From a virus (Duplodnaviria > Heunggongvirae > Uroviricota > Caudoviricetes), in IMG/VR virus record IMGVR_UViG_2778261463_000006, positions 1 through 61,071 of that record: a DNA stretch of 61,071 nt; one strand, 5' to 3'. The translations under genes and the position numbers were made by a program. The notes under the pieces are model-generated. The model was not told the origin of the DNA, made no database searches, and worked only from the letters and a program-made list of their open reading frames with translations. Shown piece after piece: positions 50,376 through 56,005 of this stretch (positions are counted from its first letter, which is position 1; every line of letters begins with the position of its first letter).

Positions 50376-50954
50376 ATGTTGCGCTTTACTGAGGAAGAGT
50401 TTCAGGCTTTTAGTGAGCGTCGAAATAAGGGGCGGTCCAGGCCAAAAACCAAAAAGGATCCATTCTTATCGCTTGCGCCGGTAAAAGAAGTTTCTCCACA
50501 TGCGAAGGCACTTGCAGCACTGGCAAAGAACCCAGACCTGCGCGACGGAAATTGCGAGCACTTCGAGCAGGTTTTCATTTTTGATTACTTCGAACGCAAG
50601 CACCCTGACATCTATGAGCTGTTGCATGCAACGCCTAACGGAGGGAAGCGTTCAAAAGCAACCGCCGGGAAAATGAAGGCTTAAGGGCAGAAAAAAGGTT
50701 ATCCGGACATGAGTCTCGATAAAGCATGCGGTATTTATCACGGCATGCGAATTGAGCTTAAAGAACCAAATGGTAAAGCCCCGACGAAAGAGCAGATCGC
50801 CTGGATGCGCAGGCTTAGAGAGGAAGGCTACTACGTTGTTCTTGCGTATGGTGCAGAACAAGCGATTACCGCCATCCTGGAATACATAAGTCTTAAAAAG
50901 GGTGAGGCTATCGAGCATGTATTGAACGGCGATAAGTGGTTGCATATTGCTTAA
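50376..50954 (+). pseudogene. VRR-NUC-type nuclease gene interrupted by a single in-frame TAA stop (50682-50684)
   Basis: Same frame reads ...HATPNGGKRSKATAGKMKA*GQKKGYPDMSLDKACGIYHGMRIELKEPNGKAPTKEQIAWMRRL...; both halves match VRR-NUC motif. Confidence 0.5.
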
Positions 50955-51150
50955 AATAATAAATTAATTAGTGCATATACGCTCTTTGTGATAGTGCACT
51001 TTAACATCGGGAGAATAATCGTGTCATCCAAGGTTAATTATGAGTCGCTGGCATCGGTCATGCCGCGTAATGAACAGGAAACAGATGCTGTAGTGGACCC
51101 TGTAATCGCTGAAATGAATGCTCGCCTGGAGGCTGAATTTGCAGCTGAGA

Positions 51151-51780
51151 ATGAACATACCACCCAGGGCGACTAGGACTGTTTTTTGTGTCGGTAGCGG
51201 TCCGTCACTCACTCGTGAGGACTGTGCTGCTATAGAAAAAACTGGCTGTTCAATCATCGCGGTTAACAATTCCTGGCAGATGTTCGATGACATTTATGCC
51301 TTATACGCCGGTGATTTGTCATGGTGGAAGCAATACGGATCCACCATACCGGGAGGGAGATTCCGCAAAGTGACAGCCAACCTGGCGGCGGCGAAATCAT
51401 TTTCGTTGGAGTACAGGCGATATTGTGGACCGGCGGAAGGGGTAAATAGCGGCGCGCAGGCTATCAGTCTGGCTGCTGAATCAGGGGCTGAAGTAGTGGT
51501 ATTAGTCGGCTATGACTGTTCTCTGCAAAACGGCCTTCATTGGCATGGCGCGCACCCTCAAGCACTACGGAATCCAACGCAGGTGTCTATTTCAAAATGG
51601 CAACAGCAGTTCCTGGATACCCGCAAAAAACACGCAGATTTACATATTTTGAATGCAAGTAGGAGCAGTGCAATTCAATGTTTCCCAAGAATAAATTTAG
51701 AGGCAGTGATCGCGTTATTATCGTCGGCAGTGGCCCAAGCGCCGCAAACTTTGTTGCGCCGCGCGGAGTGCCGATTATAG
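51151..51780 (+). CDS. MptE/DUF115-like protein (GSGPS motif), paralog 1
   Basis: Motif FCVGSGPSLT...SIIAVNNS; start uncertain (51118 or 51151). Confidence 0.45.
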   Translation: MNIPPRATRTVFCVGSGPSLTREDCAAIEKTGCSIIAVNNSWQMFDDIYALYAGDLSWWKQYGSTIPGGRFRKVTANLAAAKSFSLEYRRYCGPAEGVNSGAQAISLAAESGAEVVVLVGYDCSLQNGLHWHGAHPQALRNPTQVSISKWQQQFLDTRKKHADLHILNASRSSAIQCFPRINLEAVIALLSSAVAQAPQTLLRRAECRL

Positions 51781-52304
51781 CGGTCAATGGGGCCATCGAC
51801 TGGCTTAACCGCGCTTCTTATTTTTTCACCCTTGATCCATCCCCAGACAATATGCGGCGCGTTGGTCGTGGCCGCCGTCGCCGTGGTGTTTGTTATTGCA
51901 TGGCACTACCCGATGTTAAAGAACGTGAAGTCAGAGATGGCGTTCTGTGCTTCCGTCGTGTGGCTGAACGCGGCATGGAGCCAAAAAATACGAATTCTCC
52001 CGAGTGGTGGGCGTGGCGCTGGTCCGCACATTTCGGCCTTTGCGAAGATGAGAATGAAATTGCCAGCGGCAATAGTGCATATGGTGCTCTGAACCTGGCT
52101 TTCCATATCGGATTCAAACATGTAGCTCTGGTGGGCGTTGACGCTACGCAAGAACTACGCGTTCACTCCGGCGGCACGCCAAAAAATCTAAGTCACCTGC
52201 CTTTGTTATTCCAGTCTGCGCGTGAACAGATTGACGTTGTTTCATGCGGGAAAATGGGAGGTATTCCGCAGATGACTCTTAAAGAATGGCTGAAGAATAC
52301 ATGA
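51678..52304 (+). CDS. MptE/DUF115-like protein (GSGPS motif), paralog 2
   Basis: Motif [12 protein letters not shown]...PIIAVNGA; paralogous to upstream gene. Confidence 0.5.
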
Positions 52305-52978
52305 TGGCACCCACAATTTATCACCGTATCGACGGTACCAAATACAGGAATGTCTGGGTTGTTGGTGATCTGCATGGTTGCTACACCAGACTGATGTCCG
52401 AACTCCATCGTGTGGATTTTGACCCGGCGCAGGATTTACTGATATCGGTCGGCGACCTTATCGATCGCGGTACTGAAAATGTCGAATGTCTGGAACTATT
52501 GCAGATGCCCTGGTTCAGGGCAGTGATGGGGAACCATGAGCGGCTGATGATTGATGCGTTAAGTCCAGATGGCAACGTGAATAACTGGCTAATGAATGGC
52601 GGACAATGGTTCTTCATGCTGGACACTGATCAGGAAATATTAGCCTGGGCGCTGGTGGAGCTGGTAAAGCATCTGCCCTATATCATTGAGTTGAACACCG
52701 GGCAAGAAACTATCGTTATAGCCCATGCCGACTATCCGGATAATGAATACCAATTCGGTAAGGAGGTGCCGCTTTTCAACGTTGTCTGGGCGCGCGAGCG
52801 TATCAGTGATTCGATGGATGATATTGGTGGCGAAATTTCGGGCGCAGATCGTTTTATCTTTGGTCACACTCCGGTGAAAAGCCCGAAGACATTCTGGAAT
52901 CAGCAGTATATCGACACTGGTGCCGTATTTTGCGGAAACCTGACATTGATGAAAGTGAAAGGTGATGGTGCAGCATGA
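52286..52978 (+). CDS. ppp: Ser/Thr protein phosphatase (PPP/calcineurin-like metallophosphatase; P1 ppp)
   Basis: Motifs GDLHG, GDLIDRG, GNHE. Confidence 0.8.
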
Positions 52979-53676
52979 AGATTGCTTTAGTTTTTCGCTC
53001 TGGTGGTGACTATAACGCTTCCGATGTGCAGTGGCTGGTTAATCAACTGCCAAAAGGCTATGAAATTATTTGCCTGACAGACCTGAAGCGTTTACATGTA
53101 CCTGGCGTCAAAGTTGTCCCATTGATCAACCAGTGGCAAAAGTGCCGTGGCTGGTGGGCGAAAATAGAGTTGTTCCGACCGGATATAACCGATGATCTGT
53201 TCTATCTGGATTTGGACACGGTTATTGCCGGTGATATACGCCCAATCCTAGAGCATCCACCAACCAGCTTCACCATGCTTAGGGATTTTTACCATCCACA
53301 ATATCGTGGCAGCGGTGCCCTGTGGATACCAAATAGTGTAAAAGCGCATATCTGGAGTGCATTCTGGCAAGATCCGGAAGGTTGGATTGCTCGTTGTGTT
53401 ACTACTGAATGCTGGGGTGATCAGGGGTTTTTGCGGAAGGTTATGGGTGATGATACACCAGCATTTCAGGATCTGTATCCGGGATGGTTTGTAAGTTACA
53501 AGGCCGATGTTGTGGAACCTGGTTCGAAATATGCGAGCGCGCGTTACTCCAGGGGGAATGGGGCATTACCAAAAGACTGCCGAATAATCTTTTTCCACGG
53601 CAAACCGCGACCTCGCGAAGTGTCAGAGGATTGGCTTCCCCTTATCAGCTCATTTTTTGAGCGAGAATCAGAATAA
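52975..53676 (+). CDS. Glycosyltransferase-like protein with DxD motif (233 aa)
   Basis: FYLDLDTVI DxD-type motif after Rossmann-like N-terminus MKIALVF. Confidence 0.45.
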
Positions 53677-53677
53677 T

Positions 53678-53694
53678 ATTGCTCTAATAATTCC
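53678..53694 (+). promoter_or_regulatory. Degenerate C1 operator-like site
   Basis: ATTGCTCTAATAATTCC, 14/17. Confidence 0.4.
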
Positions 53695-53703
53695 ATATTT
53701 TTA

Positions 53704-53732
53704 AAACGTGATGTACACTCATCACGTTTTTT
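53704..53732 (+). terminator. Rho-independent terminator
   Basis: acgtgatg-tacactc-catcacgt followed by TTTTTT. Confidence 0.65.
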
Positions 53733-53743
53733 ATTAGAGCAAT
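53727..53743 (-). promoter_or_regulatory. C1 operator-like site (minus orientation)
   Basis: Reverse complement ATTGCTCTAATAAAAAA, first 14 of 17 match. Confidence 0.5.
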
Positions 53744-53977
53744 CTACAAGGTGCACTATGTGGCCATTCCGACGGAAATATCACTACTGGCTGATCGCCT
53801 TTGTTACGCCGACCGGCGGTATCAGGCATGTCATCACCAGGTATCGCAACAAGAGACTCACCTTAGCCAGAATTTTACAGGCTGCCATAGGTGAGGGACT
53901 GGATACAAATTGCGTAGTCCTTCCACCTTCATACTTAGGAAAAATGACCGAAGCACAAGCTAATACGGAACTTTGAA

Positions 53978-55240
53978 ATGAGCACTTCAGCACAAAACCA
54001 ATCAATCGAAAATGTATCTATCCCTGATGTCCTGAATGCCGGTATCCCGGCCATTATCCAGAACATCCGGGCCGCGCAACGCCGCGTTAGTTGTGATGAC
54101 CTCACAGCACGTTTTTTTGATAATGCGGTTCAGTCAGCGGAGATGCTTCACGCACAGCTTATTGATGTTTATAACGCAGAAGCTGATAGCCATAACTCCC
54201 TGGTCGATGCAGCTGAAAATATGCAGTTGGATCTCGGTCTGAAGGGTAAAGAAATTGAAGAGCTTCAGCTGCAAATTGAACATTTGAAACGCCAGCAACA
54301 GGACGCGATCGACGATGCGACGCATGACGCCAACCAGCGTGCTGATAATGCCGAACGTATAAGCATTGAGCTGGAAACAAAACTCAATGAAATGACCGCG
54401 ATGGTTGAACTGCGGAACTCACAGATTTCAACGCTAAAATCTCAATATAAAGAGATCATGAAACTTGATCCTTTTAACCTTGAGAAACGCTATAACAAAG
54501 CTAAAAGCGAGCGACAGGAACTGCGTAAGCAGGTCGCCGACCTTAACCAACAGCTCAAAAAAACTATTAAAGATGCAAGCGAAGCGCGCGTGGCATTTGC
54601 TAATAAAAAAGCAGAGGTTACCGCGCTGGTTAATGAGAATGCCAAATTTGCGACGCTCAAGAAGGAAATGTATGGCATTACTGAGCGCCGTTTCCCTGCA
54701 AGCAAACTTCACCCGACGTTAGGGCAAATCTCCTTCTTCCCGCGCCTCCTGGCTTATGGGATCTCATCGCCTAAAGAGTTCAATAACGAGCGTCCTTATA
54801 TCGTTTCTAAGCTGGACTTTGCTTATCAGTTCTGCTGCGACATGGGCTATGCCATTGATATCCGGATCAACGAATGGTTGATGCCAAACTTCCAGCCGTT
54901 GGCCATTTTCCGCGAGTTCCAGCCGGAAGGTTGGGTAGAGTTCTTCCATGAATTGATCTGTAAAGAGATGGAAAGCCGCCGCCCGGAACTGGTCCGTCGA
55001 GTTGAGTGGGCGCAAGAGGTTATGTTGGCAGATGCAGAGCTGCCGTTCAAACCGGAATTCATTGATGATCTGGCAACTAAAGGGCTGCATACCCTGTTTG
55101 ATGTGGTTACCCGCCGTCATGAGCAGTTGGTTGTCGAATTGAGTTTAGAGGAAACTGCGGCAAGAAGACTTCTCGATGTTTGCTATGCACGTAGCGATGC
55201 ATGGGAAAAAGAGAACGGCGGCACTATTTACGTTCGCTGA
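53978..55240 (+). CDS. Large coiled-coil protein (420 aa)
   Basis: N-terminal half coiled-coil (E/K/Q-rich), C-terminal globular domain. Confidence 0.5.
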   Translation: MSTSAQNQSIENVSIPDVLNAGIPAIIQNIRAAQRRVSCDDLTARFFDNAVQSAEMLHAQLIDVYNAEADSHNSLVDAAENMQLDLGLKGKEIEELQLQIEHLKRQQQDAIDDATHDANQRADNAERISIELETKLNEMTAMVELRNSQISTLKSQYKEIMKLDPFNLEKRYNKAKSERQELRKQVADLNQQLKKTIKDASEARVAFANKKAEVTALVNENAKFATLKKEMYGITERRFPASKLHPTLGQISFFPRLLAYGISSPKEFNNERPYIVSKLDFAYQFCCDMGYAIDIRINEWLMPNFQPLAIFREFQPEGWVEFFHELICKEMESRRPELVRRVEWAQEVMLADAELPFKPEFIDDLATKGLHTLFDVVTRRHEQLVVELSLEETAARRLLDVCYARSDAWEKENGGTIYVR

Positions 55241-55313
55241 TAGTTACAGTGTCACTTTTAATGCTGGTGGAGTGCGTCCCACCAGCATTTTTTTCGTCCA
55301 ATGAGGAGGGCAT

Positions 55314-55820
55314 TTGAGTATTTTCAATAAACACGCACACCAGGAACGTCCGTATATCGTCATAGTCGATATTGATGGAACAATATCGGAGGCAACGGAA
55401 GACAGACTGCATTTGCTTCCGCCACCAGGTAAAGGTGCATTAACAAAGGACTGGAACGAGTTTAATCTCGCCTGTGACACTGATACTCCCATAACTCCAG
55501 TTATTGATATTGTGCGCCAGTTATTTAACGTTTACACGGTCTGGTTTGTAACCGGGCGCTGTGAGATCGCAAGGGATAAAACACGAGCTTGGCTGCGGAA
55601 GTACGTAACAAACGGGGCTGAGCCTTTGCTATCTATGCGCCCTGCCACCGATGACAGAAATGACGGCCCAGCAAAGATTGATCTCCTTAAGAAAATTGGT
55701 CTAAGTAAAATTGCGTTCGCGCTGGAAGATAAGATTGAAGTGGCGCGTGTTTTCAGGAGACACGGCGTGCTTACGTTAATGGTCAGGGAGTATGAAAATG
55801 CGCTTCTTCATCAGCAGTAA
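55314..55820 (+). CDS. pap: HAD-superfamily phosphatase (P1 pap-like)
   Basis: HAD motif I VIVDIDGT near N-terminus; downstream motifs consistent with HAD fold. Confidence 0.6.
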   Translation: MSIFNKHAHQERPYIVIVDIDGTISEATEDRLHLLPPPGKGALTKDWNEFNLACDTDTPITPVIDIVRQLFNVYTVWFVTGRCEIARDKTRAWLRKYVTNGAEPLLSMRPATDDRNDGPAKIDLLKKIGLSKIAFALEDKIEVARVFRRHGVLTLMVREYENALLHQQ

Positions 55821-55836
55821 TTGCTCTAATAAATCT
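55820..55836 (+). promoter_or_regulatory. C1 operator-like site
   Basis: ATTGCTCTAATAAATCT, 16/17. Confidence 0.6.
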
Positions 55837-55918
55837 TGATTTTTAAAGCAGGGAAAGTGAAAATAAAAACATGCCGCAAGGCGCGGCATGTATCTAATCA
55901 ATCACAGGAGCTGAAAAT

Positions 55919-56005
55919 ATGAACACGGCATTCAAAATCATTATGGCCGCGATCTATTTCTGGCTGTTCTCTATCACTTTTGGCGGCATCGTCGCGCATG
56001 GGTAA
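55919..56005 (+). CDS. Small hydrophobic peptide (28 aa), possible small membrane protein/toxin
   Basis: MNTAFKIIMAAIYFWLFSITFGGIVAHG; AGGAG RBS; preceded by hairpin 55870-55891 and C1 operator. Confidence 0.4.
   Translation: MNTAFKIIMAAIYFWLFSITFGGIVAHG

Follow-up and report, generated by a model that had tools for sequence, protein, structure and literature searches.

A conserved cassette of phage P1, pmgO-pmgP-pmgQ, as a putative glycosylation system

Phage P1 has been much used in genetics, and yet roughly one in five of its genes still goes by a placeholder name of the kind "putative morphogenetic function." What might a few of these genes do? In this paper, we consider pmgO, pmgP, and pmgQ, together with the phosphatase gene ppp that lies among them, in a P1-like phage genome of 61,071 nucleotides (the whole stretch of DNA analyzed, which we call the window). 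A first-pass annotation had described here two overlapping paralogs with an MptE/DUF115 signature, a PPP-family phosphatase, and a gene with a DxD glycosyltransferase motif and had proposed that these four, along with a GT-B-like gene elsewhere in the genome, could make up a small modification module for virion proteins, DNA, or a host target. In other words, which of these genes belong together, what chemistry could they carry out, and on what?

The operon and its control

Over pmgO-pmgP-ppp-pmgQ, the identity to phage P1 is 98.6%, and on that basis, this is the P1 operon pmgN-pmgO-pmgP-ppp-pmgQ (Table 1). The reading frames are those described at first pass, with one difference: we start pmgO at 51118 rather than at 51151, the second in-frame ATG, and both starts are possible. 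Overlaps of 103 nt (pmgO/pmgP), 19 nt (pmgP/ppp), and a single ATGA (ppp/pmgQ) join the four genes, and the small pmgN ahead of them is without any family match.

From pmgN to pmgQ, the genes form a single unit controlled by a C1 operator and closed by a hairpin, and its regulatory signals are kept between the window and P1, Oppp differing by one base at the operator edge. The hairpin (RNA fold −13.4 kcal/mol, z −5.97), which is the same in P1 and which a simple terminator scan overlooked, is likely the terminator that ends the unit. Farther upstream, the late promoter LPpmgL is a possible source of read-through into the cassette; between that promoter (50021-50039) and 51730, the simple scan saw nothing resembling a terminator on the + strand.

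A heptamer, A_AAT_TTA (51693-51699), sits within the pmgO/pmgP overlap, with the frames right for a programmed −1 frameshift giving an O-P fusion. We judge it to be chance, because the slippery site is not conserved in other loci and because the shift would remove the conserved last helix of PmgO.

Table 1. Genes and control elements of the cassette region and of dbn, in window coordinates
Feature	Description	Coordinates	Strand	Basis
dbn	GT-B (GT4-like) glycosyltransferase candidate in ban operon	44209..45183	+	Glycos_transf_1 match
LPpmgL	Lpa-dependent late promoter 5' of pmgL	50021..50039	+	P1 annotation, via 100% identical alignment
PpmgN	Predicted sigma-70 promoter, just 5' of Oppp			P1 annotation
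Oppp (Op83)	C1 repressor operator; start of pmgN-pmgQ unit	50961..50977	-	P1 annotation
pmgN	Small ORF, 51 aa, GTG start, GGGAGA ribosome-binding site	51021..51176	+	
pmgO	Predicted minimal Maf/DUF115 (MptE-like) domain protein, 220 aa	51118..51780	+	PHROG 4603, PF01973, family alignments
pmgP	Predicted second Maf/DUF115-fold protein, distant paralog, 208 aa	51678..52304	+	
ppp	Lambda-type PPP-family Ser/Thr protein phosphatase, 230 aa	52286..52978	+	Metallophos, 1G5B match
pmgQ	Predicted GT8-like retaining GT-A glycosyltransferase, 233 aa	52975..53676	+	Alignment, AF2 model, Foldseek, profile
OpmgRa	C1 operator	53678-53694		
Hairpin	11-bp stem, A-run and T-run flanks, between OpmgRa and OpmgRb	53703..53730	+	
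OpmgRb	C1 operator	53727-53743		

Families and folds of the encoded proteins

Are PmgO and PmgP truly paralogs, and of what family? The motif GSGPS...IAVN occurs in both (as CVGSGPSLTREDCAAIEKTGCSIIAVNNS in PmgO, with a corresponding stretch of 25 residues in PmgP), and across both families, its G, P, S, and N vary little or not at all; this is the N-terminal G-x-G-P-S loop, with a strand after it whose last residue is Asn, that typifies PF01973 (DUF115). Pairwise BLASTP aligns the N-terminal stretch only (14 of 36 residues identical, E 0.003). Comparison of the two family profiles by hhalign extends over 162 columns (probability 98.3%, E 2.4e-14), and the HMM of each family matches the other's ORFs in many loci, which together argue for paralogy far beyond chance. 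PmgO belongs to PHROG 4603 (E 4e-74). Against PF01973, both proteins score below the gathering threshold of 34.6 bits (PmgO 23.4 bits, E 5.7e-5; PmgP 20.9 bits, E 3.4e-4), and homologs pass it: a natural O-P fusion protein, P0051, found in one phage, at 44.6 bits and, in precomputed matches, 17 of 51 PmgO relatives. Besides P0051, there are further double-domain proteins. In almost every locus, pmgO and pmgP lie side by side or overlap, and in one phage, they encode a single protein; as judged by this genomic pattern, PmgO and PmgP almost certainly act together.

The predicted structure of PmgP has the Maf/MptE/sialyltransferase fold, the fold of PF01973, and PmgO is linked to it through profile comparison with PmgP only. 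In MAFFT combined alignments on P0051, the PmgO homologs fell onto the PmgP-like domain of the fusion, and for that reason, the combined O+P alignment served as the input for the PmgP model. Single-sequence searches of the PDB with PmgO and PmgP gave only noise, and a search of viral folds in BFVD gave only uncharacterized MptE-like phage proteins.

Which residues could do the chemistry? The PmgO family keeps G28 P29 S30, N50, D66, S111 G112, G131 Y132 D133 C134 S135, H141, H143, N179, and R182 invariant; the invariant residues of the PmgP family, whose members also carry a basic/aromatic insertion at about residues 55-125, include N37 G38, D53, N132 S133, G153 D155, and H173. Common to both are an invariant Asp, an Asn-Ser, and a Gly-x-Asp. 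From Ser to Asp, the spacing is 22 in PmgO (S111/D133) and in PmgP (S133/D155), as it is in the sialyltransferase CstII (S132-D154). In Maf enzymes, mutagenesis has shown E324 and D415 of MmMaf and D272, S334, and D357 of CbMaf to be essential, with a spacing of 23 from S334 to D357 (10.1101/2020.06.03.131540); the comparison of these residues with the invariant D66/S111/D133 of PmgO and D53/S133/D155 of PmgP is one of spacing and not a residue-level structural alignment.

The third protein is of another kind. By model and by profile, PmgQ is a predicted GT8-like, DxD/His, retaining GT-A hexosyltransferase. Its DLDT (residues 79-82) is invariant in 29 homologs, and the invariant set includes W60 W61 K63, D79 L80 D81 T82, G148 D149, K176, and H208 G209 P211 P213, a set that contains the DxD (D79-x-D81) and C-terminal metal-binding His (H208) that go with the GT-A fold in GT8. 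No Pfam family, PF01501 (Glyco_transf_8) included, matches PmgQ at E <= 1. Its AF2 model (pLDDT 94.5) finds Gat1, glycogenin, GlyE, and LgtC in the PDB by Foldseek at E 1e-8 to 1e-7, with Gat1 the best (probability 1.00, E 2.6e-8), and the family profile matches the Gat1 sequence at E 1.9e-6 with the DxD, GD, and C-terminal P-x-P motifs aligned.

Ppp contains GDLHG, GDLIDRG, and GNHE, the motifs of the PPP family (GDxHG, GDxxDRG, GNHE), and is the ortholog of the lambda phosphatase (1G5B, E 1.6e-94 over residues 11-229), scoring 59.4 bits against PF00149 (Metallophos; cut-off 21.5) and 272 bits against the NCBIfam PphA equivalog, under its 326-bit cut-off. Dbn, the product of the GT-B-like gene, reaches 25.1 bits (E 1.5e-5; cut-off 26.4) against Glycos_transf_1 in its C-terminal half only, and a search against PDB sequences gave nothing significant. 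PADLOC, run over all proteins, found no defense-system match. Thus, the HMM searches and structure prediction that the first-pass annotation had called for uphold its assignments: the MptE/DUF115 signature in both paralogs, the PPP phosphatase, and the DxD glycosyltransferase.

A cassette shared by unrelated phages

In diderm bacteria, unrelated phages and prophages share pmgO, pmgP, and pmgQ, without ppp, as a conserved cassette, which we report here as new. An earlier seed had matched P1 clones only, and the scan of viral contigs was therefore run with a more distant first sequence. Among 34 loci with a strong match to O, P, or Q, 19 have all three and 10 have P and Q; these counts are lower bounds, because our rough ORF calling passed over some O genes and added false ORFs on the minus strand. 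Every named organism in the genome scan is a diderm.

Where does the cassette sit? In HK97-like phages, it is often directly 3' of the major capsid gene: a PF05065 gene was directly upstream in 7 of 10 cases where the upstream gene was tested and in one more locus (L005). In P1, in lambdoid phages, and in some others, it does not adjoin the capsid gene, and in two loci (L003, L007), it lies 3' of lysis genes. Between P and Q is a variable slot, in which we find class-I and FkbM methyltransferases, a Sulfotransfer_2 protein, and PF03407-like and GT2-like glycosyltransferases. O-like domains occur fused with TylF-type O-methyltransferase or Big_1 Ig-like domains, and chromosomal copies of the cassette are interleaved with inverse-autotransporter/Big_1 adhesins. 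The P1 genes, that is, belong to a mobile cassette whose phages infect several bacterial phyla and which often lies by the capsid gene.

What the cassette may do, and known systems

Our preferred reading, to which we give a probability of roughly 0.55, is that PmgO, PmgP, and PmgQ constitute a portable three-enzyme glycosylation cassette, acting late and in the cytoplasm, probably on a virion protein and possibly with CMP-Kdo. Since the cassette occurs in many phages and often comes right after the capsid gene, its probable role is the addition of sugars to a phage protein. It would be expressed in lytic growth, perhaps with help from the late promoter, and be held off by C1 in lysogens; a short glycan would be built in the cytoplasm on a protein acceptor, most likely a head or other virion protein, with PmgQ contributing a hexose from a UDP-sugar and PmgO with PmgP using a CMP-sugar to attach one or two ulosonic-acid residues. 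The only CMP-ulosonic acid that E. coli K-12 is known to make is CMP-Kdo, which would therefore have to be the donor there. Both the Kdo donor and the protein acceptor are purely what we infer. Maf enzymes in E. coli BL21 are able to O-glycosylate Ser/Thr with Kdo; we know of protein O-Kdo glycosylation only as this promiscuous side reaction of recombinant Maf and of no natural example. The function would be an accessory one, dispensable for laboratory plaque formation, and P1 knockouts of pmgO, pmgP, ppp, and pmgQ do form plaques and have no antirestriction defect, the four proteins being absent from the virion proteome (PMC9024508; PMC10695390). Literature searches on pmgO/pmgP/pmgQ, on DUF115 with phage, and on virion glycosylation found neither a functional study of the three genes nor a glycosylated P1 virion protein.

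One may push this further and imagine that virion glycosylation is widespread in phages of Gram-negative bacteria, P1 among them, with the Maf-like pair placing Kdo from host CMP-Kdo on a capsid or head protein, the GT8-like enzyme adding a hexose, and lineage-specific methyl groups, sulfate, or extra sugars following. We think this improbable as a whole, and yet if it were true, it would be both a new natural protein modification and the first coliphage virion glycosylation system.

Does the phosphatase take part in the chemistry? The first-pass annotation read the four genes and dbn as one modification module, and it is true that the four are cotranscribed and translationally coupled in P1, that ppp occupies exactly the slot used elsewhere by tailoring enzymes, and that one locus (L022) has a dbn homolog three genes away from a Q-P pair. 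That larger module does not hold up across phages, where the constant unit is O-P-Q without ppp: by BLASTP of the fetched flanks, a Ppp homolog is present in 1 of 37 non-P1 loci, itself a P1-like relative (L132), and a Dbn homolog is present in 2 of 37. More distant P1-like elements lack ppp and have the order pmgM-O-P-Q-pmgR-pmgS; Ppp is 60-65% identical over its full length to the lambda protein phosphatase, which is found in phages without the cassette; and dbn in P1 is in a separate operon, ban, 6 kb away. We consider the one-module reading very unlikely; by its distribution, ppp is an occupant of the variable slot in close P1 relatives only, not a conserved member of the cassette, and looks like an unrelated insert. 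As for the target, virion proteins remain the best guess of those first proposed, with comparative-genomic support that DNA lacks. Glycosylation of DNA is a common role of phage glycosyltransferases (the alpha- and beta-glucosyltransferases of T4), and C1 controls this operon as it does P1 early functions. That the cassette glycosylates phage DNA bases to evade restriction is, all the same, extremely unlikely: no locus examined has a hydroxymethylase or other base-modifying gene with the cassette, the fold matches are to enzymes acting on proteins or glycans, a position in the head module and sulfo- and methyl-tailoring enzymes suit a glycan rather than DNA, and antirestriction is unchanged in the knockouts (PMC9024508).

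Could the acceptor instead be the host surface? P1 adsorbs to the LPS core, and one can imagine PmgO and PmgP as WaaZ-like enzymes placing an extra Kdo on the inner core, with PmgQ like the GT8 core enzymes WaaO, WaaJ, and LgtC, so that the receptor is altered in lytic growth, for example against adsorption to debris or superinfection. WaaZ is of the same superfamily (its full length matches PF01973 at E 6.9e-7), P0051 and PmgP give a faint WaaZ_KDO_III signal (PF27901/TIGR04437), LgtC and WbbM, whose substrates are LOS and O-antigen, are among the structural neighbors of PmgQ, the basic/aromatic insertion of PmgP could bind membrane, and the named hosts are all diderms. Yet the WaaZ match, at 11.9 bits, is far below its 200-bit cut-off (hhalign probability 11-19%); C1 represses the cassette in lysogens, and lysogenic conversion is therefore not its role; LPS synthesized in the final minutes of an infection should replace little of the surface pool; and the post-capsid position, Big_1 fusions, and adhesin neighbors favor proteins over lipid A-core. 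We regard LPS remodeling as unlikely. Quite unlikely, too, is that PmgO and PmgP resemble MptE and thiamine pyrophosphokinases in function, transferring diphosphate from ATP to a small molecule that PmgQ uses or modifies. At the sequence level, the combined profile matches sialyltransferases best, rather than kinases; the partners are a constant GT8-like protein and sugar-tailoring methyltransferases, a sulfotransferase, or extra glycosyltransferases; and no pterin or thiamine pathway genes lie nearby in the loci examined.

With virion protein glycosylation as the preferred reading, three P1 placeholder genes receive a concrete and testable biochemical assignment. If virions are indeed glycosylated, there could be effects on phage stability, on immune recognition and clearance in therapy, and on host-range and receptor interactions, and the cassette might be a source of small enzymes, about 200 residues long, with which to attach ulosonic acids to proteins; should LPS be remodeled instead, P1 would have a lytic-phase receptor-editing function.

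How does all this compare with what is known? In mycobacteriophages, capsid and tail proteins are modified by glycosyltransferases encoded in structural operons, work cited, for example, by PMC11256854. There, too, glycosyltransferases of the phage are encoded among head genes; the hosts are Actinobacteria, and the likeness drawn here is one of gene position. Literature searches found no comparable virion glycosylation in Gram-negative phages or P1. PmgQ resembles, in model and profile, the GT8 enzymes glycogenin, Gat1 (the Skp1 alpha-galactosyltransferase, 6MW5), GlyE, and LgtC, a group in which cytoplasmic protein glycosylation is the role of several, and it shares with Gat1 the DxD, the GD motif, and, toward the C terminus, the His that opens an H-x-x-P-x-P stretch; at 233 residues, it is shorter than these enzymes and 11-18% identical to them.

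For the pair, the archaeal 6-hydroxymethyl-7,8-dihydropterin pyrophosphokinase MptE (8SD5) and the thiamine pyrophosphokinases are alike in fold; they transfer diphosphoryl groups from ATP, have another genomic context, and have no known glycosyltransferase partner. The enzyme WaaZ, which serves as Kdo III transferase for the LPS core in E. coli K-12/R2, would use CMP-Kdo, the sole CMP-ulosonic-acid donor present in every P1 host; its gene is in the waa LPS locus and not among phage head genes, and of the two phage proteins, PmgP scores far below the cut-off of the TIGR04437 equivalog (E 0.1) and PmgO has no match to it. The GT42 sialyltransferases Cst-I and Cst-II of Campylobacter jejuni are about 11-12% identical. 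The alignment of the combined profile with CstII spans residues 128-181 only, short of the catalytic His188, and neither this His nor the phosphate-binding Tyr156/Tyr162 is obviously conserved: at the Tyr offsets from the Asp, PmgO has Ser135/His141, and PmgP has T157/H163. To our knowledge, E. coli K-12 makes no CMP-Neu5Ac. A close known system is that of the Maf (motility-associated factor, PseE) enzymes, the flagellin nonulosonic-acid glycosyltransferases of PF01973/DUF115 (5MU5). Maf proteins are far larger, 5MU5 having 632 residues, and carry flanking domains that are believed to bind flagellin. In the window, there are no flagellar genes near the cassette, and PmgO and PmgP, at 220 and 208 residues, are by comparison bare catalytic domains of about 200 residues without such flanks, working, it would seem, as a coupled pair with no flagellin involved.

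Genes and transcription of the P1-like element

Positions 50000-56000 of the window are 98.6% identical to P1 (AF234172) and 98.0% identical to P7, hundreds of enterobacterial plasmids carry the same region, and the sequence marks the window as a P1-like phage genome or plasmid prophage. Its gene names are the P1 annotation carried over. Successive overlaps of 103, 19 and 4 nt suggest that pmgO, pmgP, ppp and pmgQ are translationally coupled.

Features of the window, with P7 gene names
Feature	Position	Basis	P7 name	Remark
pmgM	50376-50954			VRR-NUC nuclease-domain gene
pmgN	51021-51176
pmgO	51118-51780	P1 annotation	hdmB	51151, the first-pass start, is the second in-frame ATG
pmgP	51678-52304	P1 annotation	hdmC
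ppp	52286-52978	P1 annotation	ppp
pmgQ	52975-53676	P1 annotation	hdmD
hairpin	53703-53730			3' of pmgQ
pap	55314-55820			'acid phosphatase' in P1
dbn	44209-45183	P1 annotation		first-pass 'GT-B-like gene'

A C1 operator, Oppp, with a predicted sigma-70 promoter lies 5' of the unit, the late promoter LPpmgL lies farther 5', and both are conserved in the window. At the other end, an 11-bp hairpin (-13.4 kcal/mol, z -5.97), also conserved, with an A-run on one side and a T-run on the other, sits between the C1 operators OpmgRa and OpmgRb and looks like a bidirectional terminator; a simple terminator scan gave no call for it. So arranged, pmgN-pmgO-pmgP-ppp-pmgQ would form one transcription unit, repressed in the lysogen and accessible to late read-through. 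The first gene, pmgN, scored as essential by CRISPRi and non-essential by knockout (PMC10695390); polarity or a blocked promoter at the operon head may lie behind this, although the genes 3' of pmgN are themselves non-essential.

Two nearby genes deserve separate mention. In pmgM, the GAA of P1 and P7 is TAA at 50682-50684 (E103*), and since this cuts the gene into ORFs of 102 and 81 aa, pmgM is probably a pseudogene in this element. The pap product matches PF25109, the HAD phosphatase domain of polynucleotide kinase-phosphatase (E 6e-12), and has the PHROG label 'polynucleotide kinase'; Pap may be a DNA/RNA 3'-phosphatase instead of an acid phosphatase.

Family assignments

The first-pass annotation had seen here two overlapping MptE/DUF115-like paralogs, a PPP phosphatase and a DxD glycosyltransferase-like gene, and these calls stand on Pfam and profile searches, a structural model of PmgQ and a match to 1G5B. 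Both PmgO and PmgP contain GSGPS...IAVN, the stretch to which their BLASTP alignment is limited (E 0.003). When the alignments of the two families (32 relatives for PmgO, 31 for PmgP) are compared, 162 columns match with 98.3% probability (E 2.4e-14), and the Asn of IAVN, an Asp ~16 residues on, the Ser of an Asn-Ser pair and a Gly-x-Asp are invariant in both. Each protein is ~25% identical to the opposite family; by these alignments the paralogy is real but old. Their MptE-like/DUF115 Pfam scores (23.4 bits for PmgO, 20.9 for PmgP) are below the cut-off of 34.6, which many of their homologs exceed. Against the PDB, a combined profile places the CstII sialyltransferases on top (E 0.021), with two shared motifs colinear.

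A slippery heptamer of canonical form, A_AAT_TTA, lies at 51693-51699, where pmgO and pmgP overlap and pmgP is read in the -1 frame, and frameshifting there would yield an O-P fusion resembling a natural one, P0051, a single 376-aa phage-contig protein with a PmgO-like N-terminal and a PmgP-like C-terminal half, whose gene is followed directly by a PmgQ homolog and another GT-A-like gene. The heptamer is probably there by chance, because the other loci share no conserved slippery site and the shift would cost PmgO its conserved last helix.

PmgQ has no Pfam match. Its model (pLDDT 94.5) resembles the retaining GT8 enzymes Gat1, glycogenin, GlyE, LgtC and WbbM (E 1e-8 to 1e-7), and its family profile aligns with Gat1 (E 1.9e-6) at the DxD, a GD motif and a C-terminal P-x-P motif; D79, D81 and H208 are invariant in the family alignment. 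Ppp is orthologous to lambda protein phosphatase over its whole length (1G5B, E 1.6e-94), and Dbn scores slightly below the Glycos_transf_1 cut-off.

The cassette in other phages and genomes

Which of these genes belong together? The first-pass annotation had tentatively joined all of them, dbn included, in one modification module. Among 37 non-P1 loci from viral contigs, metagenomes and genomes, 34 have a strong match to at least one of the PmgO, PmgP and PmgQ families (O, P and Q), with O+P+Q in at least 19 and P+Q in at least 10 (lower bounds, owing to a crude gene caller), and O and P are nearly always adjacent or overlapping. The hosts named in the genome scan (Gamma-, Beta- and Alphaproteobacteria, Bacteroidota, Gemmatimonadota) are all diderms. 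A Ppp homolog turned up at a single locus of the 37, which belongs to a P1-like relative, and farther P1-like elements read pmgM-O-P-Q-pmgR-pmgS, without the phosphatase; a Dbn homolog is near the cassette in two. That is, the O-P-Q part of the module holds, as the conserved functional unit in these comparisons, whereas ppp appears as a lineage-specific insert, linkage of dbn is not demonstrable, and the larger module is very unlikely.

In HK97-like siphophage contigs, the cassette often lies between the major capsid gene, directly 5' of it (PF05065 in 7 of 10 tested upstream genes, and in one further locus, L005), and the head-tail connector genes on its 3' side. Lambdoid and other phages instead have it after the lysis genes. 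The slot between P and Q, filled by ppp in P1, is variable, and elsewhere holds class-I SAM methyltransferases, FkbM methyltransferases, one Sulfotransfer_2 enzyme, or PF03407-like and GT2-like glycosyltransferases, enzymes that tailor glycans. Searched against 1.8 billion representatives, the PmgO profile retrieves 7,582 relatives, some of which join the O-like domain with Big_1/Big_13 Ig-like domains (P0230), a TylF-type O-methyltransferase (P0311) or another MptE-like domain (P0223, P0243, P0303). In several Enterobacteriaceae chromosomes (L013 1357-12419; also L012, L014-L016), O/P/Q-like genes are interleaved with genes for a 1,178-aa inverse-autotransporter adhesin (IAT_beta and seven Big_1 repeats) and for two more Big_1 proteins, one with RCC1 repeats.

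In two viral contigs (L130 4721-6004; L131 1631-2899), a gene between O and P encodes a PF05521 head completion protein that is extended at its C terminus by ~320 aa rich in Ser, Thr and Gly; this protein is a candidate acceptor.

A proposed protein-glycan system and its rivals

Taken jointly, the capsid position, the slot enzymes, the domain fusions and the chromosomal copies near an adhesin suggest that the cassette assembles a decorated glycan with a protein as acceptor, in many cases a protein linked to the phage head. PmgQ would be a retaining hexosyltransferase that uses a UDP-sugar, like its GT8 neighbours; PmgO and PmgP, produced at linked levels and probably working as a pair, would add an ulosonic acid from a CMP-sugar, like Maf, Cst and WaaZ. 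We know of no nonulosonic-acid biosynthesis genes in P1 and of no such donor in E. coli K-12 except CMP-Kdo, and because P1 grows there, CMP-Kdo, the sole donor at hand, would be the one used. Recombinant Maf O-links Kdo to flagellin Ser/Thr in E. coli BL21, and its essential residues (an acidic one, a Ser and, 23 residues past the Ser, an Asp or Asn) (10.1101/2020.06.03.131540) have putative counterparts at closely similar spacing (Ser to Asp, 22 residues) in PmgO (D66, S111, D133) and PmgP (D53, S133, D155). An HWHGxH motif is invariant in PmgO, whose H141, by spacing alone, falls at the offset of the phosphate-binding Tyr162 of CstII.

The Maf/MptE-type fold by itself would fit a CMP-sugar transferase and an ATP pyrophosphokinase alike; we find pyrophosphokinase chemistry for PmgO and PmgP improbable, with CstII heading their profile matches. 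Remodelling of the LPS core seems to us unlikely; kinship to WaaZ is, by sequence, at superfamily level only. It counts against the proposed system that plaquing and antirestriction stay unaltered when pmgO, pmgP, ppp, pmgQ or dbn is knocked out singly or knocked down by CRISPRi; virion proteomics did not detect the proteins, which is what one expects of enzymes (PMC9024508; PMC10695390). Our literature search also found no P1 glycoprotein. To glycosylation of DNA, we give next to no credence. A more exciting possibility is that phage virions naturally carry Kdo.

None of the genes is new in itself: they have been known for a long time, and PHROGs already labels them, loosely, 'sialyltransferase' and 'glycosyltransferase'. 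What would be new, to our knowledge, is O-P-Q as a conserved, mobile, three-enzyme cassette, O and P as coupled paralogs with a predicted minimal Maf-like fold, and the recurrent placement of the cassette beside a capsid gene with glycan-tailoring enzymes. The chromosomal copies may be adhesin-glycosylation islands, and they recall a known arrangement, that of adhesin-linked glycosyltransferases such as Aah/AIDA-I.
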